DNA of 64,000 nucleotides, taken from Bacteroidota bacterium (GTDB lineage Bacteria > Bacteroidota > Ignavibacteria > UBA10030). The stretch is taken from the NCBI GenBank assembly GCA_025454835.1, contig JALONQ010000002.1, forward strand, positions 133,483-197,482. The letters run 5' to 3'. How positions within the stretch are numbered: the first letter of the stretch is position 1; every line of letters begins with the position of its first letter. Under the pieces are notes generated by a model. That model was not told where the DNA came from and ran no database searches. It was given only the letters and a program-made list of their open reading frames with translations. Of this stretch, positions 1,625 through 31,280 are shown one piece after another. A program made the translations under genes and the position numbers.

Positions 1625-1685
1625 AGTCCCGGGCCGATGCCGATCGGAGAGTGCTGATGATCGTCCGCTGTCGAAAGGTCTGTAC

Positions 1686-4489: not shown

Positions 4490-4496
4490 GCCAGCC

Positions 4497-5957
4497 ATGC
4501 TCGTCGGCCGTCCAGTACGGATCCTATTGATCGAAGACGAAGCGTTCGACGTGCGCCGCGTTCATCGGACGCTCCAGCCGTTCGCCGAGCAGCTGCAGGT
4601 GCGACATGTCATCTCGAACGGCGACGCGGCGATCGAGCTCGTTCGTGCCGAAGGGAACGAGCTGGACGTCGTCATCATGGATATGCAGATCGCCGGGGGC
4701 GTCATGGGGGAGGCGCTGATCCGCGAGATCAAGCGGTGGCAGCCGTCTCTACCGATCATCGTCATCACGAAGATGACCGTGAACATCGCTGACGCCGATT
4801 TCGCCAACCGGCTGCTCAAGTCGGGCGCATATTGGTACTGCACGAAGTATCCGACGGATATCGAAGAAGCGATCTATCAACCGACGGACTTCATCCTGAG
4901 CATCGTCAATGCGGCCGAACAGCGACGACTCCGGCGCGAACAAGACCGCACCGAGGGCAAGCTCGTGCGAAATGCCGAAGAGGTGCTTGCCCGAACGCGG
5001 CTGATCGGGGTATCGCCCGCGATCCAGAAGGTCCGTGCGCAAGTGCGCCAGGTGGCTTCGACCGACGCCTCGGTGCTCATCAGCGGCGCGTCGGGCACGG
5101 GCAAAGAACTGGTTGCCTCTCAGATCCATTATCAGAGCGCTCGCCGGCTCGAGAACTACGTGCCGATCAACTGCGGCAGCATCCCCGATCACCTCGTGGA
5201 AAGCGAGCTCTTCGGACACGAGAAGGGATCGTTCACCGGCGCCGACCGAGCAAAGATGGGTCTCTTCGAAGCCGGACATCGCGGAACGATCTTCCTTGAC
5301 GAGGTCGCCGAGCTTCCTCTTCCGGCGCAGGTGAAGCTCCTTCGCGTGCTGCAGGACGGGGAGATCGAAAAGATCGGCCGGACGCACCGTACGAAGGTCG
5401 ACGTCCGCATCGTCGCGGCGACGAACAAGATCTTGCAAAGCGAGATCACAGCCGGCCGCTTCCGCGAGGACCTGTTCTATCGGTTGAATGTCGTTCCGAT
5501 CCATCTTCCGTCGCTCAAAGACCGAAGAGAGGACGTGCCGGTCCTGTGGGAGCACTTCGTTCGACAGATGACCTTTGATATGGGGCACGAGTCGCCGACA
5601 ACGGAGGACGGTGCCTATCAGGTGCTGACGAGCTATGCATGGCCGGGCAATGTGCGAGAGATGAAAAACGTGATCCAACGTCTTCTGCTGATGGGAGAGT
5701 CCGTGATCACGGCGGATGTCGTTTCCGAGTACCTCACGCTGGCCCCCATCAACCCGCCCCCCGATGGTCCGCACACGATCGCCTTTGGAAGCGCCGACGA
5801 ACTGCTGCCGCTCAGGGAAATGGAGCGCCTCTTCCGTCTCCGGTACTTCCAGTTTGTGCGCTCCCATTCAGCTTCCGATGCCGAGGCTGCCAAGAAGCTC
5901 GGTCTTGCCCCTCCGAACTACCACCGCATGAGCAAGGACCTCGGTCTGAAGGACTGA
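4497..5957 (+). CDS. Sigma-54-dependent response regulator (NtrC-family enhancer-binding protein)
   Basis: Receiver (ILLIEDE, VVIMDMQ, T, K). AAA+ with GASGTGKE, ESELFGHEKGSFTGA, DEVAE, FREDLFYRLNV, WPGNVRE. C-terminal Fis-like HTH (AAKKLGL). Confidence 0.93.
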   Translation: MLVGRPVRILLIEDEAFDVRRVHRTLQPFAEQLQVRHVISNGDAAIELVRAEGNELDVVIMDMQIAGGVMGEALIREIKRWQPSLPIIVITKMTVNIADADFANRLLKSGAYWYCTKYPTDIEEAIYQPTDFILSIVNAAEQRRLRREQDRTEGKLVRNAEEVLARTRLIGVSPAIQKVRAQVRQVASTDASVLISGASGTGKELVASQIHYQSARRLENYVPINCGSIPDHLVESELFGHEKGSFTGADRAKMGLFEAGHRGTIFLDEVAELPLPAQVKLLRVLQDGEIEKIGRTHRTKVDVRIVAATNKILQSEITAGRFREDLFYRLNVVPIHLPSLKDRREDVPVLWEHFVRQMTFDMGHESPTTEDGAYQVLTSYAWPGNVREMKNVIQRLLLMGESVITADVVSEYLTLAPINPPPDGPHTIAFGSADELLPLREMERLFRLRYFQFVRSHSASDAEAAKKLGLAPPNYHRMSKDLGLKD

Positions 5958-6167: not shown

Positions 6168-6277
6168 GGTGAGTGGCGTGTCTTGCAGGTATCCTCGGCT
6201 GCCGGTCGTCGGAGCCGTCGGTGTTCCTGGCAGCCAACCCGCACATTTCTCATCCACCGTCTCAAAGGAGACCGCAC

Positions 6278-8788
6278 ATGCGGATGCTACAGTTCCTACT
6301 GGTGATCATGGTATTGCTCACGGTCCCGGTGTTCGGCCAGACCGTGATCGAGTCCTTCGATTCACCTAAGCCCGACTCGTTGTTCTACTTCGCGTCGGAG
6401 GGTTCTCCCACCTACATCCGAATGACGCAAGATGTGGCGGACAAGCAGGAGGGAATCGCTTCGACCAATATTCGGACGGCCATCGGCGCGTTTCATGCGT
6501 GGGGTTCTTTTTCCCAGATCGAATCGCGCTGGGTTGCCGGCACCATGGTGGACATCAGCATCAGCGATTCGGTGAGCATCTGGATCAAAGTGACCGAAGC
6601 GCCGAAGATCCCGGCGAACATGGTGATGCGCATCCATCTGATCGACTCGACATCGGGCGAGCCGCGAGAAGACTGGCTGTATGAGAACGCAACCATTCTG
6701 GATGCCGTCAGCGGCTGGGTGAACCTGAAGATCCCACTTACCGAGCGTGCGACGGACGGTTCGGTCGTCCCGAACGACGCCGGTTTTGTGTCTGCCCCGA
6801 CGGGATGGGGCGGATTCACGTACAACAACAAGAAGTTCGACCGCGACAAGATCGTTGGCTGGAAGATCGCATTCGTCACATCGGGCTGGGATCCGACCAA
6901 CGGCATTCCGGCCGACTCACTCGAGTTCAAGCTGGACGGTTTCCAGCGGTTCGGTCTGCGTGCCGTTCCTGCCATCATGTTCAACGGTCGCGACCTGAAC
7001 ATGAACATGAGTTCGTGGTCGTGGGGTCAGTCATCGGTGACCGTGGAGGCCAACGCCGGTCCGCTTCCGAAGACCAATGCCATCTTGTGGACACAGGGCA
7101 ACGAATACGGCAACGGCTGGACAGGCATGGGCTATGACGTCGGCAAGAATGCCGGCGCGCCGTTCAACCTGGCCGGTGGCTGGGTGGTGGACAGCGTCAC
7201 GTTCAAGATGAAGACCGACGCGGGTGTCGGACCGATCCGCCTGCAGTTCGAGACCGGCCCGTGGGGCTCCACGACGGGCAAACGCGGACATGTCTTCACT
7301 CCGAACAGCGACGGCAACTGGCATACGTATGCCTTTGCGCTTCGTGACTTTGTTGTGAAGGACGGTGCCACGAACTTCGATTCGTCGACCATCACCACGA
7401 TCGGTTTCATGGCCGAAGGGTCGGGCGTGGCCGGCAAGAAGTTGTATATCACGGATTGGTGGACCGGACGTCCGGTGTTTGACGTCATTCCTCCTGACGC
7501 CCCGTCGGGTCTGGCTGGTGCGGGCACGGGCTTTGTGAATCTCGTGACCTGGAACGACGTTCCGAACGAGCCTGGCATTCGCTACAACGTCTTCTTCGCC
7601 GACCATCCGTGGACCGCTGTCGAGGATTCGACGGTCGAAGACCTGCCGCCGTACAACATTACGAGCGCTGTTGCGACACATCCGTTGCGCGTCCCGAAGA
7701 CCGACGCCAACGTATCGCTCTACTATGGTGTCGTCTCCAAGGATCCTTCGGGCAACGAGAGTTCGCCCGTCCTCATGAGCTCGCCGGTGACGACGCTGGC
7801 GAAGGGTGTTCCTACGATCTCGAAGACAGGCCCGGCCTCATTCGTGGCCGACGGCGACCTGAGCGAGTGGTCGTCGATCACCCCCTTCGTGCTCTCGACG
7901 GTGTCTGGCACGGCGCACGCCGTTCCGAACTTCCCCATCACGAGCGACGCCGACCTGTCGGCGAACGCCTATGTGGCGGTGGATGCCACGTATATCTACG
8001 TGGCGTTCGATGTGACGGACGACATCGTGCTGGCCGCGACGACGGGCAACGACTACGAACAGGACTGCCCGGACATCTTCTTCGGCACGTACGACTGGCG
8101 CGGCAAGCGGCATTCGGCCTATCAGCGCGGCGCAAAGCCGGACTACCATCTGCGCTTCTCGCGACACCGCATCTGGATCGACAACGGCGGCGTGCGGATC
8201 GACACGATCAGCGCGAATTATGCCTGGACAGAGAAGCTGTTGTCGCCCGGCTATGTCGTCGAAGCACGGATCGCCTGGGCGGACCTGGCCACGAAGTTGG
8301 CGGGCAATGACATCGTCTTCTCGCCGGTCGAAGGCATGCGCATCCCGATCGATTTCGCCATCAACGATCGCGATTCAGACGTTCGTAACGGTATTTTGGT
8401 CTATTCGATCCTGTCCAATGACGATTCGTACAAAGCCCCGTTCTACTGGACCTATACTTGGATCGGCGACAAGTCGACCACGACGTCGGTTGAGCAGGTG
8501 AGCGACGTTGCGACCTCGTTCGAGTTGGGCCAGAACTATCCGAATCCCTTCAACCCCAGCACCGAGATCCGGTATAGCGTTCCGACCTCCGGACCGGTGG
8601 CCCTGCGGGTGTACGACATGATGGGCCGCGAGGTCGAGACACTCGTCGACCGGACCATGGAAGCCGGTTCGTATGTCGTGACGTTCAACGCCGAGCGGTC
8701 CGGCCGAGCCATGGCCAGCGGCGTGTACTTCCTCCGGCTTGACGCGGGTGCCCACACCGCGATCCGGAAGATGCTGCTCGTGAAGTAA
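6278..8788 (+). CDS. Secreted non-catalytic multi-domain carbohydrate-binding protein (two CBM-like sandwiches, FnIII-like, CBM9-like, T9SS type-A CTD)
   Basis: Signal peptide MRMLQFLLV...PVFG after RBS AAGGAG. FVADGDLSEW...AYVAVDATYIYVAFDVTDD...IDFAINDRD is CBM9-like. CTD ELGQNYPNPFNPSTEIRY...SGVYFLRL...KMLLVK. No catalytic GH motif recognised. Confidence 0.7.
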   Translation: MRMLQFLLVIMVLLTVPVFGQTVIESFDSPKPDSLFYFASEGSPTYIRMTQDVADKQEGIASTNIRTAIGAFHAWGSFSQIESRWVAGTMVDISISDSVSIWIKVTEAPKIPANMVMRIHLIDSTSGEPREDWLYENATILDAVSGWVNLKIPLTERATDGSVVPNDAGFVSAPTGWGGFTYNNKKFDRDKIVGWKIAFVTSGWDPTNGIPADSLEFKLDGFQRFGLRAVPAIMFNGRDLNMNMSSWSWGQSSVTVEANAGPLPKTNAILWTQGNEYGNGWTGMGYDVGKNAGAPFNLAGGWVVDSVTFKMKTDAGVGPIRLQFETGPWGSTTGKRGHVFTPNSDGNWHTYAFALRDFVVKDGATNFDSSTITTIGFMAEGSGVAGKKLYITDWWTGRPVFDVIPPDAPSGLAGAGTGFVNLVTWNDVPNEPGIRYNVFFADHPWTAVEDSTVEDLPPYNITSAVATHPLRVPKTDANVSLYYGVVSKDPSGNESSPVLMSSPVTTLAKGVPTISKTGPASFVADGDLSEWSSITPFVLSTVSGTAHAVPNFPITSDADLSANAYVAVDATYIYVAFDVTDDIVLAATTGNDYEQDCPDIFFGTYDWRGKRHSAYQRGAKPDYHLRFSRHRIWIDNGGVRIDTISANYAWTEKLLSPGYVVEARIAWADLATKLAGNDIVFSPVEGMRIPIDFAINDRDSDVRNGILVYSILSNDDSYKAPFYWTYTWIGDKSTTTSVEQVSDVATSFELGQNYPNPFNPSTEIRYSVPTSGPVALRVYDMMGREVETLVDRTMEAGSYVVTFNAERSGRAMASGVYFLRLDAGAHTAIRKMLLVK

Positions 8789-8800
8789 CCATCCTGGAGA

Positions 8801-8830
8801 GGGGCGCACCACGGTGCGCCCCTTCCCTTT
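8801..8830 (+). terminator. Strong stem-loop GGGGCGCAC-CACG-GTGCGCCCC followed by TTCCCTTT, between the CBM gene and the TonB receptor
   Basis: Perfect 9-bp stem. The U-tract is interrupted, so it is either a leaky terminator or an RNA-stabilising hairpin. Confidence 0.6.
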
Positions 8831-8843
8831 TCCTGGCCGACCT

Positions 8844-11567
8844 ATGAATGCTCTTCGTGGCTCCCTCATGCGAGGCGGACGTGTCGCCGGTCTCCTGTCG
8901 ACGCTCCTCTTCGTTTCCGTCCTTCTCTGGGCGGGCACGACCGGCAAGATCGCCGGCTCGATCACCGACGCGTTGACCGGCGAAGCGCTCGTCGGGGCGA
9001 ACGTCATGCTCGTTGGGACGAGTCTCGGCACGACGACCGATCTCGACGGCTACTACACGATCAACAATATCCCTCCGGGGGTGTATCAGGTCGTGGTGAG
9101 CTATGTCGGCTATCGTCGGACGACCGTGACGAACGTCCAGGTGCGCATCGATCAAACCACGCGCGTCGACGCGAAGCTGCAGTCAGAGGCGATCGAAGGT
9201 GAGGAGGTCATCGTACGGGCCGAAAGGCCGCTGGTGCAGAAGGACCTCACCTCGAGTTCGGTGACGCTCTCGGCGGATGACCTCAAGCGCATTCCGACGG
9301 AGAATCTGAGCCAGGTCGTCAATATCCAGGCGGGAGTCGTCGGCGGTCACTTCCGCGGCGGCCGTTCGAACGAAGTGGCTTACCTCATTGACGGCGTTTC
9401 CGTCGTCGACCCGTTCAACGGGCGGATGAGCGTCGAGGTCGACAACACGACCATCCGTGAGATGGAGGTGATCAGCGGTACGTTCAACGCCGAATACGGC
9501 CAGGCGATGTCGGGCGTCGTCAACATCGTGACGCAGGAGGGCGCTTCGGATTTCCACGGTTCGCTGTCGCTCTATGCGGGCGACTACGTCACGTCGAACG
9601 ACGGCACCTACATGAATCTGGCGAAGATCGAACCGTTCCGGACGGCCAACATCCAGGGAAGTCTCAGCGGTCCGATCGCCGGGGGCCTGTCGTTCTTCGG
9701 GAGCCTGCGATCGTATCAGGATGAAGGCTATCTCTACGGCCGGCGTTTGTTCTTGACGTCGGACCGGTCTCCGTATGCCCTCAGGGATCCCTTGGGCAAT
9801 TCGATCCTCGGGCCCGACGGCCAGGCGATCTATGTCATTCCGCAATCGGGGGACGGGGCGTACGTCTCGATGAACCCCTCGAAGCGCAATACGGCCAACG
9901 GCAAGCTGTCGTACAGCATGGGGTATCTCAAGTTCAGCGGCAGCCTTCTGTGGGAAGACCACTGGAACAAGTACTACGACCACGGCTTCTCGCGGACGCC
10001 GGACGGCACGACGAACCACTATCGAACGAACTGGGTGTCTTCGTTCCAGGTGACCCATTCGCCGACGGCGAATACGTATCAGACGTTCAAGGCTTCCTAC
10101 AACCAGTTTGACTACAAAGGTTACGTGTACGAGAACGAGCTCGATCCCCGCTACGTCGACCCGTCGCAAGGCACGCCGATCTCGAACTACACCTTCCGGT
10201 CCGGCGGCCAGGCGTCTGATCGGTATGACCGGCACACACGAACGTGGATCGGCCAATGGGCGCTTTCGTCGCAGCTCGATGCGCACCACAAGGTCGGTGT
10301 GGGCATCGAAGGGCGCCGGCATGAGATCTACAACCACTGGAAGACGATCCTGAACCGGAATACGGTCGTCACGGACAGTTCTGGCGCTCTCGTCTTTGAG
10401 ATCGGATATCCGGACGTCGGCACATCCGACCACACGCTCTATTACAAGGAGCCGTACGAGTTCTCGGCCTACGTGCAGGACAAGATCGAATACGACATCA
10501 TGATCATCAACGCGGGAGTTCGGGTCGACTACTTCAACCCTAACGCCTCGTACCCGCTCGACCTGCGCAATCCGTCGGGGAACCCCGAGTTCCCGAACGC
10601 CGGCGTTTCCAAAAAGACCTCGGCCAAGGTCCAAGTGAGCCCCCGCCTTGGCGTCTCGTTCCCGATCACCGATGAAGGGATCATTCACTTCTCGTACGGC
10701 CATTTCTTCCAGATCCCGAGTTTCGAGAACCTCTATCTGAATTCGAACTACCTCGTGAACCAAGGCGACAACCTCTCGAGCGTGATAGGCAATCCCGACC
10801 TCGAGGCGCAGCGGACGGTGATGTATGAGCTGGGCCTCCAGCAGGTCCTGTTCGGCCAGGTGGGTATCGATTTCACGATCTACTATCGTGACATCCGGAA
10901 TCTTCTCGGCATGGAGATCCTCAGCACGTACGAAGGATTCCGGTTCTCTCGCTTCATCAATCGGGACTATGCCAACGTCAAGGGATTCATTTTCAGCGTG
11001 GAGCGCCGGTTCATCGGCGGATTCAGCGTCCGGGCTGACTATACGTATCAGATCGCCGAAGGCAACGCCTCCGATCCGTACGCCGTCTTCTACAACAACC
11101 AGTCCGACCCTCCGACCGAGACGAACAAGAAGGTCGTTCCGCTCGACTGGGATCAGCGTTCGACGCTCAACGTGTCCGTCAGCGTCGGCGATCCGGGCGA
11201 CTGGAACGTCGGCCTCATCGCCCAGTATGGCAACGGCTTCCCGTACACCGAAGATGTCCGCGTCTCGAACGGGTTGAGGTTCGAGAACGGCGGTAAAAGG
11301 CCGACGACGTTCAACGTCGACCTGCGCGCCGAGAAGACCGTGGCCTTCGGTCCGGTCGACCTGACGGTATTCGCCCTCGTCTACAATCTTCTCGATACGA
11401 GGAACGAATACGGCGTCAACGCGGCGAGCGGTCGCGCGAACATCGACCTCTACACCTATCTGGCGGGCCGGATCATCGGCCTGAACACGATCGACGAATA
11501 CGTCAACAACCCGGCCTCGTTCTCGGCGCCGCGCCAGGTGCGGTTGGGTGTCACGTGGAATTTCTGA
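8844..11567 (+). CDS. TonB-dependent receptor with N-terminal carboxypeptidase-regulatory-like domain (not SusC-type)
   Basis: TTGKIAGSITDALTGEALVGANV, plug (HFRGGRSNEVAYLIDGVSV, GTFNAEYGQAMSGVVNIVT), SPRLGVSFPIT, C-terminal beta-signal RLGVTWNF. Alternative start 8868. Confidence 0.92.
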   Translation: MNALRGSLMRGGRVAGLLSTLLFVSVLLWAGTTGKIAGSITDALTGEALVGANVMLVGTSLGTTTDLDGYYTINNIPPGVYQVVVSYVGYRRTTVTNVQVRIDQTTRVDAKLQSEAIEGEEVIVRAERPLVQKDLTSSSVTLSADDLKRIPTENLSQVVNIQAGVVGGHFRGGRSNEVAYLIDGVSVVDPFNGRMSVEVDNTTIREMEVISGTFNAEYGQAMSGVVNIVTQEGASDFHGSLSLYAGDYVTSNDGTYMNLAKIEPFRTANIQGSLSGPIAGGLSFFGSLRSYQDEGYLYGRRLFLTSDRSPYALRDPLGNSILGPDGQAIYVIPQSGDGAYVSMNPSKRNTANGKLSYSMGYLKFSGSLLWEDHWNKYYDHGFSRTPDGTTNHYRTNWVSSFQVTHSPTANTYQTFKASYNQFDYKGYVYENELDPRYVDPSQGTPISNYTFRSGGQASDRYDRHTRTWIGQWALSSQLDAHHKVGVGIEGRRHEIYNHWKTILNRNTVVTDSSGALVFEIGYPDVGTSDHTLYYKEPYEFSAYVQDKIEYDIMIINAGVRVDYFNPNASYPLDLRNPSGNPEFPNAGVSKKTSAKVQVSPRLGVSFPITDEGIIHFSYGHFFQIPSFENLYLNSNYLVNQGDNLSSVIGNPDLEAQRTVMYELGLQQVLFGQVGIDFTIYYRDIRNLLGMEILSTYEGFRFSRFINRDYANVKGFIFSVERRFIGGFSVRADYTYQIAEGNASDPYAVFYNNQSDPPTETNKKVVPLDWDQRSTLNVSVSVGDPGDWNVGLIAQYGNGFPYTEDVRVSNGLRFENGGKRPTTFNVDLRAEKTVAFGPVDLTVFALVYNLLDTRNEYGVNAASGRANIDLYTYLAGRIIGLNTIDEYVNNPASFSAPRQVRLGVTWNF

Positions 11568-11589
11568 CCCGAAGGTCCAGGAGCTGACA

Positions 11590-14500
11590 GTGATCCGAAC
11601 GTTCATTCTCTCGCTGCTGTTCGCCGGCACTGCCGTTGCCGTCGCTCAGCCCGTCCTGACGCCGTCCGTCGATTCCCTCCATATCGGAAGCGTGAGGGTG
11701 GGCCAGCCGTTGACGTCAAGCCAGCTCTCCGTGCGGAACACCGGCTCGGGGCTGCTGACGGTCACGGCTATCGCCTCGTCGAACTTCGCCGTCAAGATCG
11801 GCGCGTCGCTGGCGGTCATCGCCCCGGGCGATTCGTTCATCGTCACCGTCACCTGGCGGCCGCGAAAGGCGGGGTTCGACACGGCGTCCGTCACGTTCAC
11901 CAGCAATACCTCGGCCCCGCCGCGGCGCGTTCGGTTGACCGTTATCGGCGACGTTGTGCTCGACCCCACGACGGCGGCCTACCGCAATGACCGCATCGGC
12001 GAGGTCACTGCCCGTCGCGAAGGCACCCTGAACGGCAATCTCATTTCGACGCTGTTCTACAACCACGGTGAAGTGGCGAAGTGGAACTTCCAGCCGTCCG
12101 TGGTCTGGCCGAAAGGAACGAACCACTCGTACATGGACGGCGTCGCCGTCCTCATCGGTGCACGCACGATCGCACCGGGCAACGGGAATGTCATCTCTCC
12201 GATCCAATCGGCGTATCGGGAAGAGGTGGACAAAGACCCGGTCACCGGACTGGAATGGGTCCTGCAACCGCTGCCAGGCTATGACAACCCGGGCCGACGG
12301 CCGAGCCCCACGCCGGCCGTGAACCGCGACACCTCGACATTTCCGCGGGTCTGGCCGGCGGCGCTCGGCCTCGACGCCACCTGGAACGGATTCTGGTACG
12401 GCTACTTCGGCCGGGGCGTCACGAATGCCGATCTCGAAACGTTCTACGTGATGGACGATTCGAAAGACAAGGAATTTACCAGACCGCCGTTCCTCTACTA
12501 CCCGATCGCTGGGGATTCTGCGCGCGGTGGGCTCGGCTTGCGGGTGGAGGTCCGCGGCTTCCAGTGGTCGCACGTGCTGGCCGAAGACATCATCTTCTGG
12601 CACTACGACATCGTCAACATCTCCGACTGGGACTACGACTCGACGGCCTTCGGTTTTTACACCGATCCCGGCGTTGGCGGTCCGAGCGCGCCGGGCAACA
12701 GCGCGCGGTATAACTCGCAGTTGGACCTGGCCTATGCTTGGAACACCAGCGGCATGGGCGTGCCCGATAACTGGAAGACCGGCTACGTCGGATATGCCTA
12801 CCTCGAAAGCCCGGGAAACGCGCTCAACGGCATTGACGACGACGAAGACGGAATGATCGACGAGCGGCGCGACGACCGCATCGACAACGACGGCGACTGG
12901 GTGTCGTTCACCGACCTGAACGCCAGCGCGACCTGGGACCCGGGCGAACCTTTGAACGACGACCTGGGCCGTGACGGCGTCGGTCCCACGGACCTGCAGT
13001 ATTCCGGTCCGGATGTGGGCGAAGGGGACGGCGTGCCGACTCCGGGCGAGCCGAACTTCGACCAGACAGACAAGGATGAGTCTGATCAGATCGGGCTTTC
13101 ATCGGCCGCCATCTGGGGGCTGGCCGACAAGGGTCCATCGGGCGGCTGGCCGAAGAACGACGAGATCATGTGGCAGAAGATGAACAGCGGCTTCCGCGAC
13201 ACGGCCATTGCCAACACGAACATCAGCATGACGTTCTCTTCCGGCCCGTTCCCGTTGCGCCAAGGACGCCGCGAACGCTTCTCGATGGCCCTGGCGATGG
13301 GGGAGGACCTGGACGATCTCATCTTTAACAAGGAGACGGTACAGGAGATCTACAACGCAAACTACAACTTCTCGAAGCCTCCATACACGCCTCGGCTGAC
13401 AGCTGTGCCCGGCAACGGACGCGTCTTCCTTTACTGGGACAACGTGGCCGAGCGGTCCGTGGACCGGTTCATGGGATTGCAAGATCCCTCCGATCCGTCG
13501 AAGGGCTACAAGCGGGATTTCGAGGGATACCTGCTGTATCGCAGTACGGAAGCGGAGTTTAACGACATCAAGATCATCACCGATTCGAAAGGCTCGGGCA
13601 AGTACTGGAAGCCCATTGCGCAATGGGACCTTGCTGACAGTATCGCCGGCCCCGATCCGGTCGGTATCAACGGGGCGAGCTTCTGGCGCGGCTCGAATTC
13701 GGGGCTTGTCCATTCCTTCATCGACACGACGGTCCTGAACGGAGTCCGCTACTACTATGCGCTCGTGTCGTACGACATGGGTGATCCAAAGCGCGGGACG
13801 AAGGGGTTGCAGCCGACGGAGTGCACCAAGATCATCACAGAGGACTTTGCCGGAAACCTGAAGTTCATCGATATCAATTGTGCCGTCGTCATGCCCAACG
13901 GCCCGGCCGCTGGATACCAACCGCCCCAAACGGAGGGGGACCTGAGAAAAGTCGCATCGGGCCTGGGCACCGGATCGATCGGCCTGATCATCCTTGATCC
14001 GAGCCAGGTGATCGACGGTGCGCGCTACACGGTCAGGTTCAAGGCCGATTCAACGATCCCCACCTACCGAACGCGTTCCTTCGACCTGCTCCGGACGAGC
14101 GGGACCTTGACAGACACGCTCCATCGGGGCTTGGATTCCTCGAGCATCGGCGAAGGCCGTTTCTCGCCGCCATTCGACGGCATGGTCCTGTCCGTTGCCA
14201 ACGACACCGCCGTCGTCCTGAATGACACCGCGACAGGCTGGGTGGTGGGTCGGAGCAACCTCTTCATGCGGGTGGCACGCGACGTCACGATCGGTTCGCG
14301 TTCGATCGCGTGGCCGACCGACTATGAGCTCCAGTGGTATCCGACGATCGTCGATACGACGGCGCTCAACGCCCCGGCATCGCGGTATCCGCTGCTGCCC
14401 GTCAACTTCACCGTCCGAAATCTCTACACCGGAGGACGGTCGAAGTTCATCATCCATGACGTCGACAACTCGAACTCTCTGACGGTCGGCGACACGATCC

Positions 14501-15018
14501 GGGTGTTGGAGCAGTTTGTCAGCGCGTCGAACTTCAAGTTCACGTGGAAACTCACGTACGGCCGCCCGTTCGGGGCCGACACGCTCTTTCCGCAGCCCGG
14601 GGACCGATACGTGATCAAGACCCGTCGGCCCTTCCTGACGGGCGACGAGTTCCAGTTCACGACGCGCGGATCGCGCACCGACCTGGAGGAGGCCAAGAAC
14701 AGCCTCGACCGGATCTCGGTCGTACCGAACCCGTACATCGCGACGGCACCGTGGGAGCGACGGTCGCTCTATGTGACAGGCCGAGGGGAGCGAAAGATCG
14801 AGTTCAAGAACCTGCCCGCGCTGTGCACGGTGCGCATCTACACCGTGAGCGGGGGACTTGTGGCGACGCTCCGGAAGGACTCATCGCCGATGGACGGCTC
14901 GCTGCCGTGGAACCTGATCTCGGATGACGGCATGGAGGTGGCGTACGGCCTCTACATCTATCACGTCGAAGCTCCCGGCCTCGGTGAGCACGTCGGCAAG
15001 TTTGCGATCGTGAAGTGA
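11590..15018 (+). CDS. Large secreted uncharacterised protein: Ig/ASH-like domain, conserved core, acidic Ca-binding-like repeats, FnIII-like domain, divergent T9SS-like CTD
   Basis: Signal peptide from GTG 11590. VRNTGSGLLTVTAI (ASH-like), NGIDDDEDGMIDE/IDNDGDW, PRLTAVPGNGRVFLYWD. C-terminus ISVVPNPY...KIEFKNLP..CTVRIYTVSG.LV...WNL...VAYGLYIYHV...KFAIVK. Confidence 0.7.
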   Translation: MIRTFILSLLFAGTAVAVAQPVLTPSVDSLHIGSVRVGQPLTSSQLSVRNTGSGLLTVTAIASSNFAVKIGASLAVIAPGDSFIVTVTWRPRKAGFDTASVTFTSNTSAPPRRVRLTVIGDVVLDPTTAAYRNDRIGEVTARREGTLNGNLISTLFYNHGEVAKWNFQPSVVWPKGTNHSYMDGVAVLIGARTIAPGNGNVISPIQSAYREEVDKDPVTGLEWVLQPLPGYDNPGRRPSPTPAVNRDTSTFPRVWPAALGLDATWNGFWYGYFGRGVTNADLETFYVMDDSKDKEFTRPPFLYYPIAGDSARGGLGLRVEVRGFQWSHVLAEDIIFWHYDIVNISDWDYDSTAFGFYTDPGVGGPSAPGNSARYNSQLDLAYAWNTSGMGVPDNWKTGYVGYAYLESPGNALNGIDDDEDGMIDERRDDRIDNDGDWVSFTDLNASATWDPGEPLNDDLGRDGVGPTDLQYSGPDVGEGDGVPTPGEPNFDQTDKDESDQIGLSSAAIWGLADKGPSGGWPKNDEIMWQKMNSGFRDTAIANTNISMTFSSGPFPLRQGRRERFSMALAMGEDLDDLIFNKETVQEIYNANYNFSKPPYTPRLTAVPGNGRVFLYWDNVAERSVDRFMGLQDPSDPSKGYKRDFEGYLLYRSTEAEFNDIKIITDSKGSGKYWKPIAQWDLADSIAGPDPVGINGASFWRGSNSGLVHSFIDTTVLNGVRYYYALVSYDMGDPKRGTKGLQPTECTKIITEDFAGNLKFIDINCAVVMPNGPAAGYQPPQTEGDLRKVASGLGTGSIGLIILDPSQVIDGARYTVRFKADSTIPTYRTRSFDLLRTSGTLTDTLHRGLDSSSIGEGRFSPPFDGMVLSVANDTAVVLNDTATGWVVGRSNLFMRVARDVTIGSRSIAWPTDYELQWYPTIVDTTALNAPASRYPLLPVNFTVRNLYTGGRSKFIIHDVDNSNSLTVGDTIRVLEQFVSASNFKFTWKLTYGRPFGADTLFPQPGDRYVIKTRRPFLTGDEFQFTTRGSRTDLEEAKNSLDRISVVPNPYIATAPWERRSLYVTGRGERKIEFKNLPALCTVRIYTVSGGLVATLRKDSSPMDGSLPWNLISDDGMEVAYGLYIYHVEAPGLGEHVGKFAIVK

Positions 15019-15025
15019 GGCGAAC

Positions 15026-16045
15026 ATGAAACGACTGATCATTGGAGTGCTCGTCAGCCTCGCCGTCGCCGGAACGAGCGCCGTGGGGCAGAATGTCTCG
15101 AAACGCGGTACCACGGCCGCGACCTTCCTGTCGATCTCGCAAGGGGCGCGTGGCATGGCCATGGGGGGCGCGTTCGTCGCCGTCGTGAACGATCCGTCGG
15201 CGATGTACTGGAACCCCGCCGGCTTGACCGAGGTCGAAGGGATCAGTTTCCTCGTCGACAATACGACTTGGATCGCGGACATCCACTACAATTACATCGG
15301 CGCCACCGTATCGGCCGGGCCGGTCGGCGTGCTCGGGCTCAACGTGACGATGTCGAACATCGCCGACATGGCCGTGACGACGGTCGACAAACAGGATGGG
15401 ACCGGTGAGGTCTTTGGCGTGTCGGACCTGGCGGTCGGCCTGTCGTACGCGATCAAGTTGACCGATGCGTTCTCCATCGGCTTCACGCCGAAGTTCGTCC
15501 ACCAGAAGATCTGGAAGATGAGCGCCACGGCGTTCGCGATCGATCTTGGCGTCAAGTACCGGACGCCGTTCGAAGGCTTCACCCTCGGCATGTCGATCTC
15601 GAACTTCGGCACGAAGATGCAGATGCAAGGGAACAATTCGCTGGTACTGTACGATCCTGATCCGTCCGGCTCGGGCAACAATGGTCGCATCCCGGCGCAG
15701 CTGGCGACGGAGGAATGGGAACTGCCGCTGAACTTCCGCGTGGGTTTGGCGTACGATCTGCCCCTCGAAGAGATCGGCCGGCTGACCCTGGCGGCCGACG
15801 CGCAACACCCCAGCGACGACTACGAGAGCGTGAGCGCCGGCGGCGAGTTTGAGTTCAACGAGGTGCTTTACATTCGGGGAGGATATAAAACGTTGTTCCT
15901 CACTGATTCGGAAGAAGGGTTGGCACTCGGCCTCGGCGTCCGGCAATACGTCATCGGCAACGTCCGCCTGGGACTCGACTACGCCTACCAGGAGTTCGCC
16001 CGCCTGGCCAGCGCCCAGAAGATCACCCTCAGCATCCAGTTCTGA
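15026..16045 (+). CDS. PorV/PorQ-family outer-membrane beta-barrel (UPF0164-like)
   Basis: GTTAATFLSISQGARGMAMGGAFVAVVNDPSAMYWNPAGL, DLAVGLSYA, LPLNFRVGLAY, alternating beta-strand pattern, terminal Phe (ITLSIQF). Confidence 0.85.
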   Translation: MKRLIIGVLVSLAVAGTSAVGQNVSKRGTTAATFLSISQGARGMAMGGAFVAVVNDPSAMYWNPAGLTEVEGISFLVDNTTWIADIHYNYIGATVSAGPVGVLGLNVTMSNIADMAVTTVDKQDGTGEVFGVSDLAVGLSYAIKLTDAFSIGFTPKFVHQKIWKMSATAFAIDLGVKYRTPFEGFTLGMSISNFGTKMQMQGNNSLVLYDPDPSGSGNNGRIPAQLATEEWELPLNFRVGLAYDLPLEEIGRLTLAADAQHPSDDYESVSAGGEFEFNEVLYIRGGYKTLFLTDSEEGLALGLGVRQYVIGNVRLGLDYAYQEFARLASAQKITLSIQF

Positions 16046-19252: not shown

Positions 19253-20230
19253 ATGAGTTCAGAAGGTCTCTGCCTCGGCGTGGACATTGGCGGCACGAAC
19301 ACCGTGCTCGGCCTCGTGGACGCCTCAGGCCGCCTCATGGGTGAGTCGTCGATCTCGACGTGCGCGCATCAACCGGCCACGCAGCTTTTCGACCGGCTCC
19401 ACAAAGCGGCGACGGTGCTCGGCAAGTCCCTCTCGGGCCGCTGGGATCTGCGCGGCATTGGCATCGGTGCGCCCAACGCGAACTACTACCGCGGCACGAT
19501 CGAACAGCCTCCCAACCTGAGCTGGGACCACGTCGATGTCGTCTCGGAGATGTCCCGGTTCTTCAAGGTGCCGGTAGCCGTGACGAATGACGCGAATGCC
19601 GCCGCCCTCGGTGAAATGCTCTTCGGCTCGGCCCGTTCGATGAAGGATTTTATCGTCGTCACGCTCGGCACGGGCCTTGGGAGCGGCATCGTGGCCAACG
19701 GCCAGCTGGTCTATGGGGCCGACGGCTTTGCCGGAGAGATGGGCCATACGATCGCCGTGCCCGGCGGTCGGGAATGCGGTTGCGGCCGTCGCGGTTGCCT
19801 CGAAGCCTATGCTTCGGCGAACGGCGTCCGGCGGACGGTCCATGAGCTGATCGCCTCCACGATGGAGGCGAGTGAGCTCCGTGACGTCCCGTTCAACGAA
19901 CTGACGGCCAAGCGTGTCGCGGAATCGGCCGCTCGCGGCGACCGATTGGCCCTCGAGACGTTCGACCGCACCGCCCGATGGCTCGCTGCCAGCCTGGCCG
20001 ATGCTGTCGCGTATTTCAGCCCGCAAGCCATCATCCTCGTCGGCGGCGTGGCCTCGGCCGGGGACCTTCTCCTGAAGCCGGTGAAGAGGTACCTCGAGGC
20101 GAACGTCCTCAGTGTCTTCAAAGACAAGGTGGCCATCCTGCCCTCTGGCCTCGCGAACGGGAACACGGCGGTACTTGGCGCCGGGGCCCTCATCTGGAAT
20201 GAGCTGAAGGCCGGGCCGAAGGGTTCGTAA
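19253..20230 (+). CDS. ROK-family sugar kinase (glucokinase)
   Basis: GVDIGGTN, NDANAAALGE, TLGTGLGSG, AGEMGH, CGCGRRGCLEAYAS. ATG 19253 preferred over the track start at 18962. Confidence 0.92.
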   Translation: MSSEGLCLGVDIGGTNTVLGLVDASGRLMGESSISTCAHQPATQLFDRLHKAATVLGKSLSGRWDLRGIGIGAPNANYYRGTIEQPPNLSWDHVDVVSEMSRFFKVPVAVTNDANAAALGEMLFGSARSMKDFIVVTLGTGLGSGIVANGQLVYGADGFAGEMGHTIAVPGGRECGCGRRGCLEAYASANGVRRTVHELIASTMEASELRDVPFNELTAKRVAESAARGDRLALETFDRTARWLAASLADAVAYFSPQAIILVGGVASAGDLLLKPVKRYLEANVLSVFKDKVAILPSGLANGNTAVLGAGALIWNELKAGPKGS

Positions 20231-21651
20231 TGGAGATGCAGCATCACACGAACGACGGCGGCTTCCAAGCCGCCGTTGTTGTTCGACGGCGACGCTTGGG
20301 ACGGACCATCCTCCTCCTGACAGGCGCCGTATTCGTTTCTTGCGTGAACGATCCCGTGGTCGAAGAACTCCCCCCGGTCATCAGCGGTTCGGCCATTATC
20401 GGTACGCTCTCCGACTCGACGACGGGAGGACCTCTGGCGTACACCCGCGTCCGGCTGCTCGGCCCAGGCGTGGAACGGCTGGCGTTGACAAGCGCGGCGG
20501 GCGAGTTCCGATTCAGCAGCGTCGTCCCAGCCACGTACCGAGTGACGGTCGACCGGGCTGGATATGACTCGACGACAGTCGAAGTACCGTCGGGCGTGCG
20601 CGATACCTCGAGGGTGCGTCTCGCGGCGTTGCGCCGCGCCAACGTGCCGCCGTTGAAGCCGTTAGGAACAGGCCGCTATCGGATCGAAGGGCGGCTGCTG
20701 CACGAGGACGTCGATCGGGATGGGATCTACAGCGCGGCCCGCATCAACGGAGTGGCTTTCTCACCGACGCCGATCGGGGGCGGCACGCAGACGCCGGCCA
20801 TGTTCCAGCGGGCCTTCCAGTACCTCGACACGTTGAACGCCAACACCATCAGGACCTACAGCGGCGCCACCGACGAGCTCCTGAGGACCGCCGCGTCATA
20901 CGGCGTGCGTGTGATCGTGGGCTATTGGGTGCTGACCGATGCCGACATGGCCGACCCGGTCTTCCGTCAGAACACGGTGAGGTCGTTCCGCGAAATGGTC
21001 CGAAGCCTCAGATCGTATCCCGCCGTGCTCTTCTGGAATCTCGGGAACGAACAGAATCTGCCGCACGTGAACGGCGACACGCCGCTGTGGTACGACCTCG
21101 CCGAAGAGCTCGCCGTCGCCGCGTTCGAGGAAGAGGGAACGGCCTTCCATCCGGTCTGCATCAGCAACGGCGGCGTGACGAACATCGGCGACCCTGCCAA
21201 GCGGGCGGACGACGCTTCACTTCGATATGTTGACCTCTGGGCGTCGAATCTTTATCGGCTCGACCTTACGTCGTCGTTCGCCCAATTCCGAGGGGCAACC
21301 TCCAAGCCGATCGTCCTCACGGAATTCGGCGTCGACGCATTCGACCATCGCATCCGACAGGAGTTCGCAGCGGTTCAGACCTTGGTCGACAGTATGAACT
21401 GGTCTCAGATCCTCTCGGCCAGTGACGTGTGCATCGGCGGGACGGTCTTCGAATACACCGACGAATGGTGGAAGGCGGGGGACCCGCTCAGCCACAACGA
21501 CGGCGGCTACTTCACCAACCAGCATCCGGACGGCTATTCGAACGAGGAATGGTGGGGCCTGATCGCCGTCACCCCCGACACGAACGCCGACGGCATGGAC
21601 GAATGGCGTCCGCGCAGCGCATTCCGGATGTTCCAACGACAATGGCAATGA
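20230..21651 (+). CDS. Lipoprotein: carboxypeptidase-regulatory-like domain plus clan GH-A TIM-barrel hydrolase (GH2-TIM/GH157/GH158-like)
   Basis: Lipobox-like FVSC. ANTIRTY, FWNLGNEQN (acid/base), KPIVLTEFG (nucleophile), FEYTDEWWK, NEEWWG. Family not resolvable by eye. Confidence 0.7.
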   Translation: MEMQHHTNDGGFQAAVVVRRRRLGRTILLLTGAVFVSCVNDPVVEELPPVISGSAIIGTLSDSTTGGPLAYTRVRLLGPGVERLALTSAAGEFRFSSVVPATYRVTVDRAGYDSTTVEVPSGVRDTSRVRLAALRRANVPPLKPLGTGRYRIEGRLLHEDVDRDGIYSAARINGVAFSPTPIGGGTQTPAMFQRAFQYLDTLNANTIRTYSGATDELLRTAASYGVRVIVGYWVLTDADMADPVFRQNTVRSFREMVRSLRSYPAVLFWNLGNEQNLPHVNGDTPLWYDLAEELAVAAFEEEGTAFHPVCISNGGVTNIGDPAKRADDASLRYVDLWASNLYRLDLTSSFAQFRGATSKPIVLTEFGVDAFDHRIRQEFAAVQTLVDSMNWSQILSASDVCIGGTVFEYTDEWWKAGDPLSHNDGGYFTNQHPDGYSNEEWWGLIAVTPDTNADGMDEWRPRSAFRMFQRQWQ

Positions 21652-25456: not shown

Positions 25457-25460
25457 GCGT

Positions 25461-31100: not shown

Positions 31101-31280
31101 TGCACCTTGGCGGTCTTCGATTTGCTGGGACGACAGGTGGCTACGCTCATTGATGGAGTCCGGCCGGCGGGAATGCAGATCATTTCGTGGAACGCTTCGG
31201 GCCAGCCGGCGGGCGTGTACTTCTGTCGTCTGCAAACGGCCGGCATTGTCATTGCGCGAAAGCTGGTTTTAGCGCGATAA
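28182..31280 (+). pseudogene. GH3 + FnIII + CARDB-like + F5/8C (CBM32-like) + T9SS CTD gene interrupted by one in-frame TAG at 30747-30749 (or a readthrough gene)
   Basis: ORFs 28182-30749 and 30762-31280 share a frame. Reading through gives MDLDSL*CVEDVTLYWEDAFGKEY, a continuous F5/8C domain, then FPNPFNP CTD. GH3 motifs DGPHGVR, KHFAAN, VVSDW. Confidence 0.75.

Follow-up and report, generated by a model that had tools for sequence, protein, structure and literature searches.

The DNA window analysed here, i.e., the whole stretch of 64 kb, carries three genes on the + strand at positions 8844-16045, which encode a TonB-dependent receptor, a large secreted protein (referred to as BIG) and an outer-membrane barrel of the PorV/PorQ family. 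The genes are separated by gaps of 22 nt (receptor-BIG) and 7 nt (BIG-barrel), in agreement with the tight spacing described in an earlier sequence-only reading, and a GH3 gene begins 18 nt after the barrel. The linkage of the three genes proposed in that reading holds; the conserved unit, however, consists of four genes, with the gene of a CBM9 protein carrying a type IX secretion system (T9SS) C-terminal domain (CTD) at 6279-8788 ahead of the receptor. The features of the locus are as follows.

1539-2990, + strand: solute-binding protein of the upstream regulator set (Pfam SBP_bac_1)
2987-4489, + strand: histidine kinase of the upstream regulator set (Pfam HATPase_c)
4497-5957, + strand: sigma-54 activator/response regulator of the upstream set (Pfam Sigma54_activat and Response_reg)
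6279-8788, + strand: CBM9 protein bearing a T9SS CTD of type A (CBM9_1, 55.1 bits; TIGR04183, 35.6 bits, cutoff 23)
8799-8834, + strand: strong, GC-rich hairpin separating the CBM9 and receptor genes, with an 11-bp stem and a 4-nt loop, then CCCTTTTCCT
8844-11567, + strand: TonB-dependent receptor, 907 aa, with signal peptide, CarbopepD_reg extension, plug, and barrel ending in VTWNF
11590-15018, + strand: BIG, 1142 aa, secreted, all-beta, with a GTG start (longest ORF from 11548)
11656-11946, + strand: N-terminal Ig-like domain of BIG (choice-of-anchor D; NF012200, 54.7 bits)
11965-13947, + strand: conserved core of BIG, residues 140-800, with the most invariant columns and pLDDT >90
13948-14682, + strand: variable β-sandwich region of BIG, residues ~800-1045, the part least conserved between paralogues
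14704-15015, + strand: CTD of BIG, residues 1053-1156, composed of VVPNPY, an insert and a seven-strand β-sandwich ending in GKFAIVK
15026-16045, + strand: PorV/PorQ-family outer-membrane barrel, 339 aa, with signal peptide, ending in TLSIQF
16064-38965: β-glucan enzyme and transport set, in order GH3, MFS, ROK kinase, CarboxypepD_reg protein, GH9-CTD, GH3, SurA-like protein (25395-27296), GH16, GH3 with an in-frame TAG followed by a CTD, GH3-PA14, GH5, GH16-malectin-CTD and GH5-CBM6-CTD (minus strand)

The regulator set at 1539-5957 also precedes the module in many orthologous loci. The CBM9-CTD protein is non-catalytic and a candidate surface glycan-binding protein; among the genes of the locus, its gene reaches the greatest contig depth in metatranscriptomes. 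Wetland metatranscriptomes contain RNA contigs that match parts of the receptor, BIG and barrel genes of the window with 100% identity; these contigs are short, assembled and of low depth, and none crosses a gene junction. The hairpin resembles a terminator or attenuator; RNA contigs of two runs stop at 8790, and depth falls downstream, which is suggestive of such a role. As the sequence-only reading had counted, five type-A CTDs with YPNPFN/FPNPFN motifs are encoded in the window (on the CBM9 protein, GH9, the fragment behind the in-frame TAG of GH3, GH16-malectin and GH5-CBM6), which implies a working T9SS.

The receptor matches CarbopepD_reg (75.6 bits), Plug (PF07715, 30.2 bits, cutoff 23.9) and TonB_dep_Rec_b-barrel (PF00593, 84.1 bits, cutoff 27), and a candidate TonB box (EEVIVRA, read by eye) follows its N-terminal domain. 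The signal peptide, plug, 22-strand-type barrel domain and candidate TonB box place it among TonB-dependent transporters in general. The SusC/RagA model TIGR04056 yields 66.8 bits (cutoff 368.25), and the match is confined to residues 45-170, i.e., the N-terminal extension and the start of the plug. The earlier designation as a non-SusC receptor is therefore correct with respect to the model, although the SusC-type N-terminal CarbopepD_reg extension is present. The gene directly downstream is that of BIG and not that of a SusD/RagB-family lipoprotein, so a SusC-type pairing was rejected. A SusD-family gene (PF07980, PF14322 or PF12741) was found neither among the scanned genes of the 64-kb window nor in the ten loci for which Pfam tables were precomputed.

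The receptor may alternatively serve export, a TonB-dependent protein of the Oar type assisting in the translocation or assembly of BIG, which the barrel would anchor. The Oar-type architecture with its CarboxypepD_reg N-domain would fit this role, as would the receptor of one family member, which matches OMP_b-brl_4 (PF25183) and OMP_b-brl_3; a precedent is Myxococcus Oar, which is needed for secretion of the protease PopC (PMC6434023). We regard this explanation as highly improbable: the locus otherwise encodes all of a glycan catabolic pathway, for which import across the outer membrane is required, no importer is encoded there besides this receptor, and the T9SS-type CTD of BIG already accounts for its export.

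The trio of receptor, BIG and barrel was kept in every homologous neighbourhood surveyed, including paralogous loci for other substrates and loci in other phyla. The order CBM9-CTD, receptor, BIG, barrel was observed in 80 of the 80 Ignavibacteriota loci wherever flanking sequence exists, most of them flanked by GH3, GH16, GH5 or GH9 genes, and Ignavibacterium sp. AP026678 has the same architecture. At 31-57% identity, the trio is also kept in nine distant loci (L082-L084, L085 on its upstream side only, and L086-L090), some of them of Calditrichota, others on a Marinimicrobia-like contig or in untyped MAGs. The loci read cover at least three phyla (Ignavibacteriota, Kryptoniota and Calditrichota) plus the Marinimicrobia-like contig, and none of the 89 loci breaks the trio wherever flanking sequence exists. 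Wherever a locus has flanking sequence, BIG is followed directly downstream by the barrel; a CBM9 homologue immediately precedes the receptor upstream in all orthologous loci with a flank, and likewise in L088 and L089. The linkage of the trio is far beyond chance. The pairwise identities of the receptor, BIG and the barrel are correlated, and the β-glucan orthologues cluster together in all three; a SurA/PpiC-like gene also recurs in trio loci. The surroundings of the distant trios differ, comprising α-amylase (L087 and L090), GH38/GHL10 (L088), GH63-like genes with an ABC sugar transporter (L082) and GDPD/lipase (L086), and the core of BIG is kept in these loci for different substrates.

BIG has a type I signal peptide without a lipobox Cys, and its C-terminal sequence reads ...ISVVPNPYIATAPWERR...GKFAIVK. 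The AlphaFold2 (AF2) model has a mean pLDDT of 86.4 and a pTM of 0.76. Over its length BIG matches no named family, the sole family match being the N-terminal choice-of-anchor-D/Ig domain; this domain is limited to the closest relatives, is missing in the 1039-aa Ignavibacterium forms, and occupies columns with 85-94% gaps in the family alignment. The core contains invariant acidic DxDxDG-type loops at residues 425-515 (nt 12820-13092). In the variable region, the 1592-aa form of L084 has ~680 aa at a place where the window protein has ~220, and a faint Reg_prop match was seen in the L084 homologue. Identity with SusD/RagB was rejected, since BIG lacks a SusD-family Pfam match and a lipobox and is predicted to be all-β. 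Clustered at 50% identity, the family falls into at least 625 clusters; its named members are "hypothetical", with one WOR-3 member annotated in UniRef as "T9SS type A sorting domain-containing protein", and we found no paper describing it.

With regard to function, BIG could represent a new family of surface proteins, acting on its own either as an enzyme or by binding glycans, and the barrel could be a FadL/PorV-like diffusion channel; neither would form a complex with the receptor, and the linkage would be a matter of co-regulation only. Invariant polar residues are indeed many (D304, R336, N357, E420 and D726), the barrel also matches Toluene_X/FadL (32.9 bits), and Foldseek matched the core of BIG to the β-supersandwich domains of carbohydrate-active enzymes, namely dextran dextrinase (E 7e-9), GH94 phosphorylases and GH63. 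These matches, however, have TM scores of just 0.13-0.23 and concern non-catalytic N-domains, and neither a catalytic barrel nor an (α/α)6 or any other catalytic domain was found in BIG with the AF2 model and Foldseek. Moreover, the same core stands beside β-glucan, α-glucan, mannoside and phosphodiester/lipid sets, which argues against one catalytic specificity, and the fixed order, gaps of 7-22 nt and co-inheritance over at least three phyla are stronger than is usual for co-regulation. We therefore consider a free-standing role quite unlikely.

In the AF2 model, the CTD of BIG is a high-confidence seven-strand β-sandwich (residues 1057-59, 1084-87, 1092-99, 1104-11, 1119-21, 1134-42 and 1146-55; pLDDT ~90) at the end of a Sec-exported protein, and the Ig-like fold expected of a CTD is thus predicted. 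A conserved insert of 15-20 residues follows the PNPY motif, and W1069, E1070, the GRG sequence at 1078-1080 and R1082 are conserved. The type-A models TIGR04183 and PF18962 matched neither BIG nor its last 111 residues at E values up to 10, and hhalign gave only a weak in-register alignment of the BIG tail with the five type-A CTDs of the window (E 1e-3, probability 20%), in which the tail shows an insert of 15 residues behind PNPY. The missing type-A match and the insert after PNPY bear out the earlier observation that the VVPNPY domain differs from those five. The type-B models (PF13585 CHU_C and TIGR04131) did not match the window BIG, and CHU_C matched 3 of 42 family members weakly (best E 1.6e-4).

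In NCBIfam, matches of the CTD are limited to the C-termini of PorZ (E 9e-4) and PorU (E 1.2e-3). The PDB relatives of the family CTD profiles are likewise the C-termini of PorU and PorZ only, with E values of 0.031 and 0.58 in one profile search and 0.005 and 0.05 in another, and the Foldseek matches of the BIG model include both PorZ (E 3e-7) and PorU (E 6e-5). At the sequence level, the likeness to the PorU/PorZ CTDs is weak but specific (E 1e-3 to 0.6). It does not extend to full-length identity with PorZ, which has β-propellers, or with PorU, which has a C25-type peptidase, as only the last ~70 residues align (PorZ model NF052228, 17.7 versus 260 bits; PorU model NF033707, 16.6 versus 420 bits).

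Of all parts of BIG, the CTD varies least between paralogues, with 42-65% identity versus 31-60% for the whole protein. For reference, the cleavable type-A CTDs of the window share only 33-44% identity with the CTD of the CBM9 protein, and this difference fits a permanent structural role for the CTD of BIG. The near-invariant insert (residues 1062-1081) is the sole low-confidence stretch of the otherwise confident AF2 model, as expected of an interface.

The barrel passes the PorV/PorQ family model NF033709 with 208.7 bits (cutoff 90), which confirms its earlier family assignment. It falls short of the equivalog models of PorQ (NF033711, 95.2 versus 220 bits), PorV (NF033710, 76.5 versus 250) and PorV2 (NF052325, 75.5 versus 325), and by these scores it represents a separate PorV/PorQ subfamily that comes closest to PorQ in both length and score. 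Its PDB match is PorV (6h3i_F, E 1.1e-5). In a related Ignavibacteriota chromosome, a second PorV/PorQ-family gene lies 9 kb upstream of the trio, which bears indirectly on whether the barrel is the sole PorV of its genome. That the barrel is dedicated to BIG is a well-supported inference.

PorU, PorV, PorZ and PorQ have roles in the attachment complex, in which PorZ is a carbohydrate/A-LPS-binding protein (PMC8754138). BIG and the barrel might accordingly form a locus-specific, PorZ/PorQ-like (or PorU/PorV-like) "utilisome organiser" that holds or attaches the type-A-CTD enzymes and CBM proteins of the locus on the surface near the receptor, BIG itself neither handling substrate nor capping the receptor. 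This possibility draws on PorU and PorZ being the only PDB and NCBIfam relatives of the CTD, on the conservation of the BIG core whatever the substrate, and on the presence of type-A CTD proteins in most trio loci. On the other hand, the sequence of BIG resembles PorZ or PorU nowhere but in the CTD, a search for a peptidase C25 domain found none, the trio of L082 is not accompanied by a called CTD protein in the part of that locus covered, and an organiser would not explain why the trio so strictly includes a TonB receptor next to BIG. We consider an organiser unlikely.

In the interpretation that we favour with some reserve, the CBM9-CTD protein, the receptor, BIG and the barrel form the outer-membrane uptake core of a SusD-less β-glucan PUL, with BIG docked beside the receptor. 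The receptor would import oligosaccharides freed by the T9SS-secreted GH5, GH9 and GH16 enzymes of the locus. BIG would be exported by Sec and then cross the outer membrane by means of its T9SS-type CTD, which would stay uncleaved and docked on the PorQ-sized barrel, like the PorZ/PorU CTDs on PorQ/PorV. Docking would fix BIG at the cell surface beside the receptor, where, as a non-lipoprotein accessory, it may capture or hand over substrate or cap the receptor. The parts of this model differ in strength. It is likely that the genes form a functional module for uptake; the balance tips slightly towards a retained CTD docked on the barrel, and falls just short of even for BIG and the receptor being physically associated. 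A SusD-like lid role of BIG is doubtful. The core of BIG is conserved across substrates, unlike the substrate-specific SusD, which suggests a generic role, and this conservation together with that of the CTD speaks against a simple SusD-like, substrate-specific one. The uptake-core interpretation is weakened by the lack of a recognised carbohydrate-binding module in BIG, by a CTD that the type-A and type-B models miss, and by Melioribacter roseus, which has SusC/D/E for starch, so that the lineage is not SusD-free (PMC3534657). In Rhodothermus marinus, the xylan locus may hold a similar trio, by candidate homology, beside a true SusC/SusD pair (PMC6987092).

The trio probably constitutes an alternative, as yet undescribed, to uptake by a SusC/SusD pair. 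As in SusC/SusD (RagA/RagB) systems, a TonB-dependent transporter with a CarbopepD_reg extension heads a substrate-specific CAZyme locus, the gene of a large surface protein directly follows it, a non-catalytic CBM protein is present (cf. SusE/F), and paralogous copies accompany different enzyme sets. Unlike SusC, the receptor scores 66.8 versus 368 bits on the SusC/RagA model, and whereas SusD is an α-helical TPR lipoprotein of ~550 aa, members of the BIG family are all-β proteins of 1040-1600 aa without a lipobox, whose core is conserved across substrates. The partner furthermore has a T9SS-type CTD and its own PorV/PorQ-family barrel as an obligatory third member.

The PorZ-PorQ and PorU-PorV pairs of Porphyromonas gingivalis resemble the BIG-barrel pair in having a large surface protein, with a C-terminal β-sandwich to which that of BIG is nearest, and a 14-strand-type barrel of the PorV/PorQ family, which in our locus is of PorQ size; docking by a retained CTD is proposed by analogy. 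BIG, however, lacks similarity to PorZ and PorU outside the CTD, the barrel lies under the PorQ and PorV equivalog cutoffs, and the pair is found in several paralogous copies, within catabolic loci and adjacent to a TonB receptor, and not once per genome as part of a secretion system. The combination of a divergent CTD with a dedicated adjacent outer-membrane barrel recalls SprB-SprF of Flavobacterium johnsoniae (type-B CTD), as do the insert after the PNP motif and the weak CHU_C matches in 3 of 42 members; in contrast to that system, the barrel belongs to the PorV/PorQ and not the PorP/SprF family, the window BIG has no type-B match, and the setting is nutrient uptake rather than gliding adhesins. 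BtuG-BtuB of Bacteroides provides a precedent for a non-SusD, all-β surface protein that acts as a ligand-capturing extracellular cap beside a TonB-dependent transporter, although BtuG is a lipid-anchored lipoprotein with a β-propeller fold, whereas the anchor of BIG would be a separate barrel reached via the T9SS.

The three genes at 8844-16045 most likely form the uptake core of a SusD-less utilisation locus. The sequence-only reading had described them as a non-SusC TonB receptor, a giant secreted protein of ~1140 residues (BIG; 1142 residues here) and a PorV-like barrel, and the trio was borne out, with intergenic gaps of 22 and 7 nt and a GH3 gene 18 nt after the barrel gene. The features of the locus are listed below; CTD denotes a C-terminal domain, and type-A and type-B are classes of T9SS sorting domain.

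1539-5957: solute-binding protein, histidine kinase and sigma-54 activator, upstream, heading the beta-glucan locus
6279-8788: CBM9 protein with a type-A CTD, directly 5' of the receptor gene
8799-8834: hairpin with T-rich tail
8844-11567, + strand: TonB-dependent receptor, ATG start confirmed (a longer GTG ORF would cross the hairpin)
11590-15018, + strand: BIG, 1142 codons
15026-16045, + strand: PorV/PorQ-family barrel, 339 codons
Downstream: beta-glucan set of four GH3, two GH16, two GH5 and one GH9 genes, an MFS transporter and a ROK kinase

Each of the three proteins begins with a signal peptide, and no lipobox cysteine was found in BIG. The receptor consists of a CarbopepD_reg N-domain, a plug and a TonB-receptor barrel; against the SusC/RagA model it reaches 66.8 of the 368 bits required, the match being confined to residues 45-170, in agreement with its designation as non-SusC. 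The barrel likewise proved to be a PorV/PorQ-family member (208.7 bits against a cutoff of 90), lies under the PorQ, PorV and PorV2 equivalog cutoffs, and has PorV as its only real relative in the PDB. In a related Ignavibacteriota chromosome (L010), a second PorV/PorQ-family gene (2-859; NF033709, 155 bits; 25% identical to the window barrel) is located 9 kb upstream of the trio; several barrels of this kind are thus present in genomes of the lineage.

The locus around the trio is a beta-glucan pathway. The G+C content of the window is ~62%, and its closest relatives among the matches listed are Ignavibacteriaceae MAGs, whose BIG proteins are 86-88% identical. The solute-binding protein, kinase and sigma-54 activator set also precedes the module in many orthologous loci. 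A scan for the sigma-54 promoter pattern returned matches no more often than expected by chance, and none upstream of the operon within 2 mismatches; at 6226-6241, TGGCAGCCAACCCGCA has the right GG/GC spacing by eye, with 3 mismatches to the sigma-54 promoter. The window has five type-A CTDs bearing YPNPFN or FPNPFN, the number originally counted. The GH3 gene at 28182-30749 ends at an in-frame TAG within an F5/8-type-C domain, and the frame past this codon (30747-31280) is open for ~175 codons to an intact type-A CTD (FPNPFNPSTQIRF...LVLAR). The 473-aa protein encoded at 20230-21651, whose only match is a CarboxypepD_reg domain, has homologues in several orthologous beta-glucan loci (L002, L013 and L017).

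The window stretch is contained in wetland metagenomes (word shares of 1.00, 0.89 and 0.72), and 6-10% of its sampled words occur in each of five wetland metatranscriptomes. In four of four runs, the CBM9 gene is densely covered by RNA contigs identical to the window, the receptor gene is also covered, and the BIG gene is covered in patches; the barrel gene is covered in two of four. None of the window-matching contigs crosses a gene junction. Between the CBM9 and receptor genes, the hairpin at 8799-8824 has an 11-bp stem with 8 GC pairs and is followed by the T-rich tail CCCTTTTCCT. RNA contigs from two runs stop at 8790, just 5' of the hairpin, and RNA depth is lower downstream of it, contig depth being a poor measure. 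These observations fit a partial terminator, which could raise the amount of CBM protein above that of the membrane module.

A 90%-clustered protein collection contains more than 1200 BIG homologues, and every named one is a "hypothetical protein"; in a 50%-clustered library, 5095 clusters match at E<=1e-3, 2355 at E<=1e-10 and 625 at E<=1e-30. At least 583 stretches match in a scan of one genome per species, and the best 80 of these were searched, with 10-kb flanks, with the window proteins. As the sequence-only reading had anticipated, the trio co-occurs in homologue neighbourhoods: the order of CBM9-CTD, receptor, BIG and barrel genes is intact in all 80 loci wherever the contig extends far enough, most of which are flanked by GH3, GH16, GH5 or GH9 genes, and a complete Ignavibacterium genome shows this arrangement too. 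Locus L032, from the laboratory-cultivable Rosettibacter primus, carries the trio as well. The 80 loci constitute one synteny observation because all are orthologues within one phylum. The independent evidence is provided by distant loci (BIG identity 31-57%), in which the receptor precedes BIG in nine of nine and the barrel follows it in eight, the exception being L085, where the contig ends inside BIG. The nine loci are as follows, rotamase denoting a SurA/PpiC-like gene.

L082: neighbours ROK regulator, ABC sugar transporter, rotamase and GH63-like
L083: short contig; BIG flanked by a receptor (cut at the contig end) and the barrel start
L084: BIG of 1592 aa; a Marinimicrobia protein in its 90% cluster
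L085: short contig; receptor upstream, contig end within BIG
L086: neighbours glycerol-3-phosphate dehydrogenase-like, GDPD and lipase
L087: neighbours rotamase, CBM20-CTD, LacI and two alpha-amylases
L088: neighbours GH38, rotamase, CBM9-like CTD protein and GHL10
L089: Calditrichota proteins in its cluster; neighbours CBM9-CTD and GH3
L090: Calditrichia; neighbours alpha-amylases, rotamase, ABC sugar transporter and TrmB

The named BIG cluster members belong to Calditrichota, Neomarinimicrobiota and WOR-3, and the fetched loci add Kryptoniota, many being generic "Bacteroidota" MAGs; the label Methanosarcinaceae archaeon on one cluster member is taken to be a binning error. Across nine loci (the window, locus L001 and seven distant ones), the pairwise identities of receptor, BIG and barrel correlate (Spearman 0.48-0.63), and the beta-glucan sets cluster together for all three proteins alike; the trio has therefore been inherited as a unit. 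No SusD-family gene was found within the stretch seen in any of the 10 loci with precomputed Pfam tables. That the TonB-dependent protein serves export in the manner of Oar is highly improbable.

A rotamase gene recurs in or beside trio loci of quite different substrate types: 25395-27296 in the window (weak SurA_N_3 match, 22.4 bits), 12852-14444 in L082, 5439-7130 in L087, 287-2065 on the minus strand in L088 and 4731-6104 in L090, lying directly upstream of the receptor gene in L087 and L090. It may encode a periplasmic chaperone dedicated to this module.

The only recognisable domain in BIG is an N-terminal choice-of-anchor-D Ig domain, and a sequence search against the PDB found no relative among solved structures. 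With 29 close homologues as input, AlphaFold2 gave a poor model (pLDDT 60.3), which was left out of the fold search; with 66 diverse family members it gave a good one (mean pLDDT 86.4, pTM 0.76), which predicts an almost wholly beta protein with the following parts (numbered on the longest ORF, from 11548, which reaches residue 1156).

Residues 37-133: optional Ig domain
Residues ~140 to 610: large core, pLDDT >90
Residues 425-515: long acidic loops within the core, with invariant DxDxDG-type motifs
Residues 588-603: the one long helix
Remainder: more beta-sandwich domains, then the C-terminal sandwich

The DxDxDG-type motifs are probably calcium sites. Foldseek on the whole chain gave low-TM multi-domain matches only, headed by dextran dextrinase (E 7e-9), PorZ (E 3e-7) and PorU (E 6e-5), with GH94 phosphorylases and GH63 also among the top matches. 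Since BIG has no helical catalytic barrel, the glycosidase matches must fall in their non-catalytic beta-supersandwich domains. Such matches might nevertheless recall an independent surface enzyme or binder, with the barrel acting separately as a FadL-like channel, which is quite improbable. Between paralogues, the core and the CTD are conserved and residues ~800-1045 are the most variable, making this region the candidate if BIG has a substrate-specific part. The 1592-aa variant of L084 (3022-7800) retains the core and CTD and has roughly 680 residues in place of the ~220-residue variable region of the window BIG, with a faint Reg_prop (propeller) match; the enlarged region may carry a lineage- or substrate-specific function.

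The last ~100 residues of BIG (CTD, residues 1053-1156) run from VVPNPY through an insert and beta strands to GKFAIVK. The Pfam and NCBIfam type-A and type-B models do not match this domain, even at E up to 10, and in NCBIfam it matches only PorZ (E 9e-4) and PorU (E 1.2e-3), each at the extreme C-terminus. Against the PDB, neither the CTD profile nor the whole-family profile matches anything except the C-termini of PorU (6za2) and PorZ (5m11), which align end-on (E 0.031 and 0.58, respectively, in one search; 0.005 and 0.05 in the other). The CTD profile also aligns weakly but in register with the type-A CTDs of the window, with a 15-residue insert after PNPY. In a Pfam scan of 42 family members, weak matches to CHU_C (a type-B CTD) were found in 3 and to FlgD_ig in 2, and one WOR-3 member is a type-A sorting-domain protein according to its UniRef name. 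Thus, the BIG CTD belongs to the T9SS CTD superfamily, in which it is divergent and has a signature of its own, and the C-terminal sandwich of the AlphaFold2 model and the PorU/PorZ relatives upheld the earlier view of a divergent tail with the CTD fold. No other part of BIG is as conserved between paralogues as this domain (identity of 42-65%, whole-protein identity being 31-60%); the type-A CTDs of the window are only 33-44% identical to the first, that of the CBM9 protein. The insert contains the near-invariant residues W1069, E1070, G1078-R1079-G1080 and R1082 and is the sole low-confidence stretch of the 66-member model, a pattern expected where ordering depends on a partner. This conservation and the insert suggest that the BIG CTD is more than a cleavable signal.

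PorU and PorZ retain their CTDs. Both are T9SS components seated permanently on PorV and PorQ, respectively, in the attachment complex (PMC8754138). Given these relatives, BIG and its barrel might form a local unit resembling PorZ/PorQ that attaches or scaffolds the CTD enzymes of the locus, a reading we consider unlikely. That they are the housekeeping porU-porV or porZ-porQ genes of the organism was rejected because BIG has no PorU or PorZ similarity outside the CTD and because paralogous BIG-barrel copies are tied to different catabolic loci.

In the preferred reading, an uptake core, T9SS-anchored secreted GH5, GH9 and GH16 enzymes would cleave beta-glucan, the polymer would be bound by the CBM9 protein, oligosaccharides would be imported via the receptor, and GH3 enzymes, the MFS transporter and the ROK kinase would complete the pathway. 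BIG would be exported by way of its CTD and remain docked through it on a private PorQ-like barrel, beside the receptor, as we infer from the linkage and co-inheritance of the genes and from the character of the CTD. There it could cap the receptor as SusD does, hand over substrate or organise other surface proteins. Conservation of the BIG core across substrates argues less for substrate recognition than for a generic structural or mechanical role, and a strict lid role is doubtful. We tentatively propose, as a possibility, that the trio is a three-protein TonB-dependent importer, the general counterpart of SusC/SusD in non-Bacteroidia FCB phyla (Ignavibacteriota, Kryptoniota, Calditrichota, Marinimicrobia and WOR-3), in which BIG is a non-lipoprotein that is delivered by the T9SS, retains its CTD and is anchored by a private barrel. 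Assembly of the uptake machine, and not only enzyme secretion, would therefore depend on the T9SS.

Most of what is understood about glycan passage across the outer membrane comes from work on SusC/SusD in Bacteroidia. In sediments, wetlands, hot springs and reactors, polymers are degraded by abundant Ignavibacteriota, Calditrichota, Marinimicrobia and relatives of these phyla, whose CAZyme loci are usually called "PUL-like without SusD"; the trio would supply their missing uptake core. With at least 625 clusters at 50% identity, the module is widespread; it is also conserved and wholly unannotated. If the proposal is true, it would provide a marker for locating utilisation loci in these phyla, widen the role of PorV/PorQ-type barrels and retained CTDs, beyond the secretion machine, to nutrient-uptake complexes, and offer a new transporter accessory protein family for structural study.

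No description of the trio was found in the literature on Ignavibacteria, Melioribacter or the T9SS; the Melioribacter genome paper describes only a SusCDE starch operon (PMC3534657). The module resembles SusC/SusD with its surface glycan-binding proteins in function, whereas its receptor fails the SusC model and BIG is not SusD. The BIG-barrel pair is similar to PorZ-PorQ and PorU-PorV, although BIG is neither PorZ nor PorU and the barrel represents a separate PorV/PorQ subfamily, and it is similar in logic to SprB-SprF; the module belongs to none of these systems. In the xylan locus table of Rhodothermus marinus DSM 4252, Rmar_1070 (TonB receptor), Rmar_1071 (hypothetical protein with a Por CTD) and Rmar_1072 (hypothetical protein) stand in a row beside a true SusC/SusD pair (PMC6987092), and, judged from these published gene descriptions, they may be the same trio in a cultivable thermophile.
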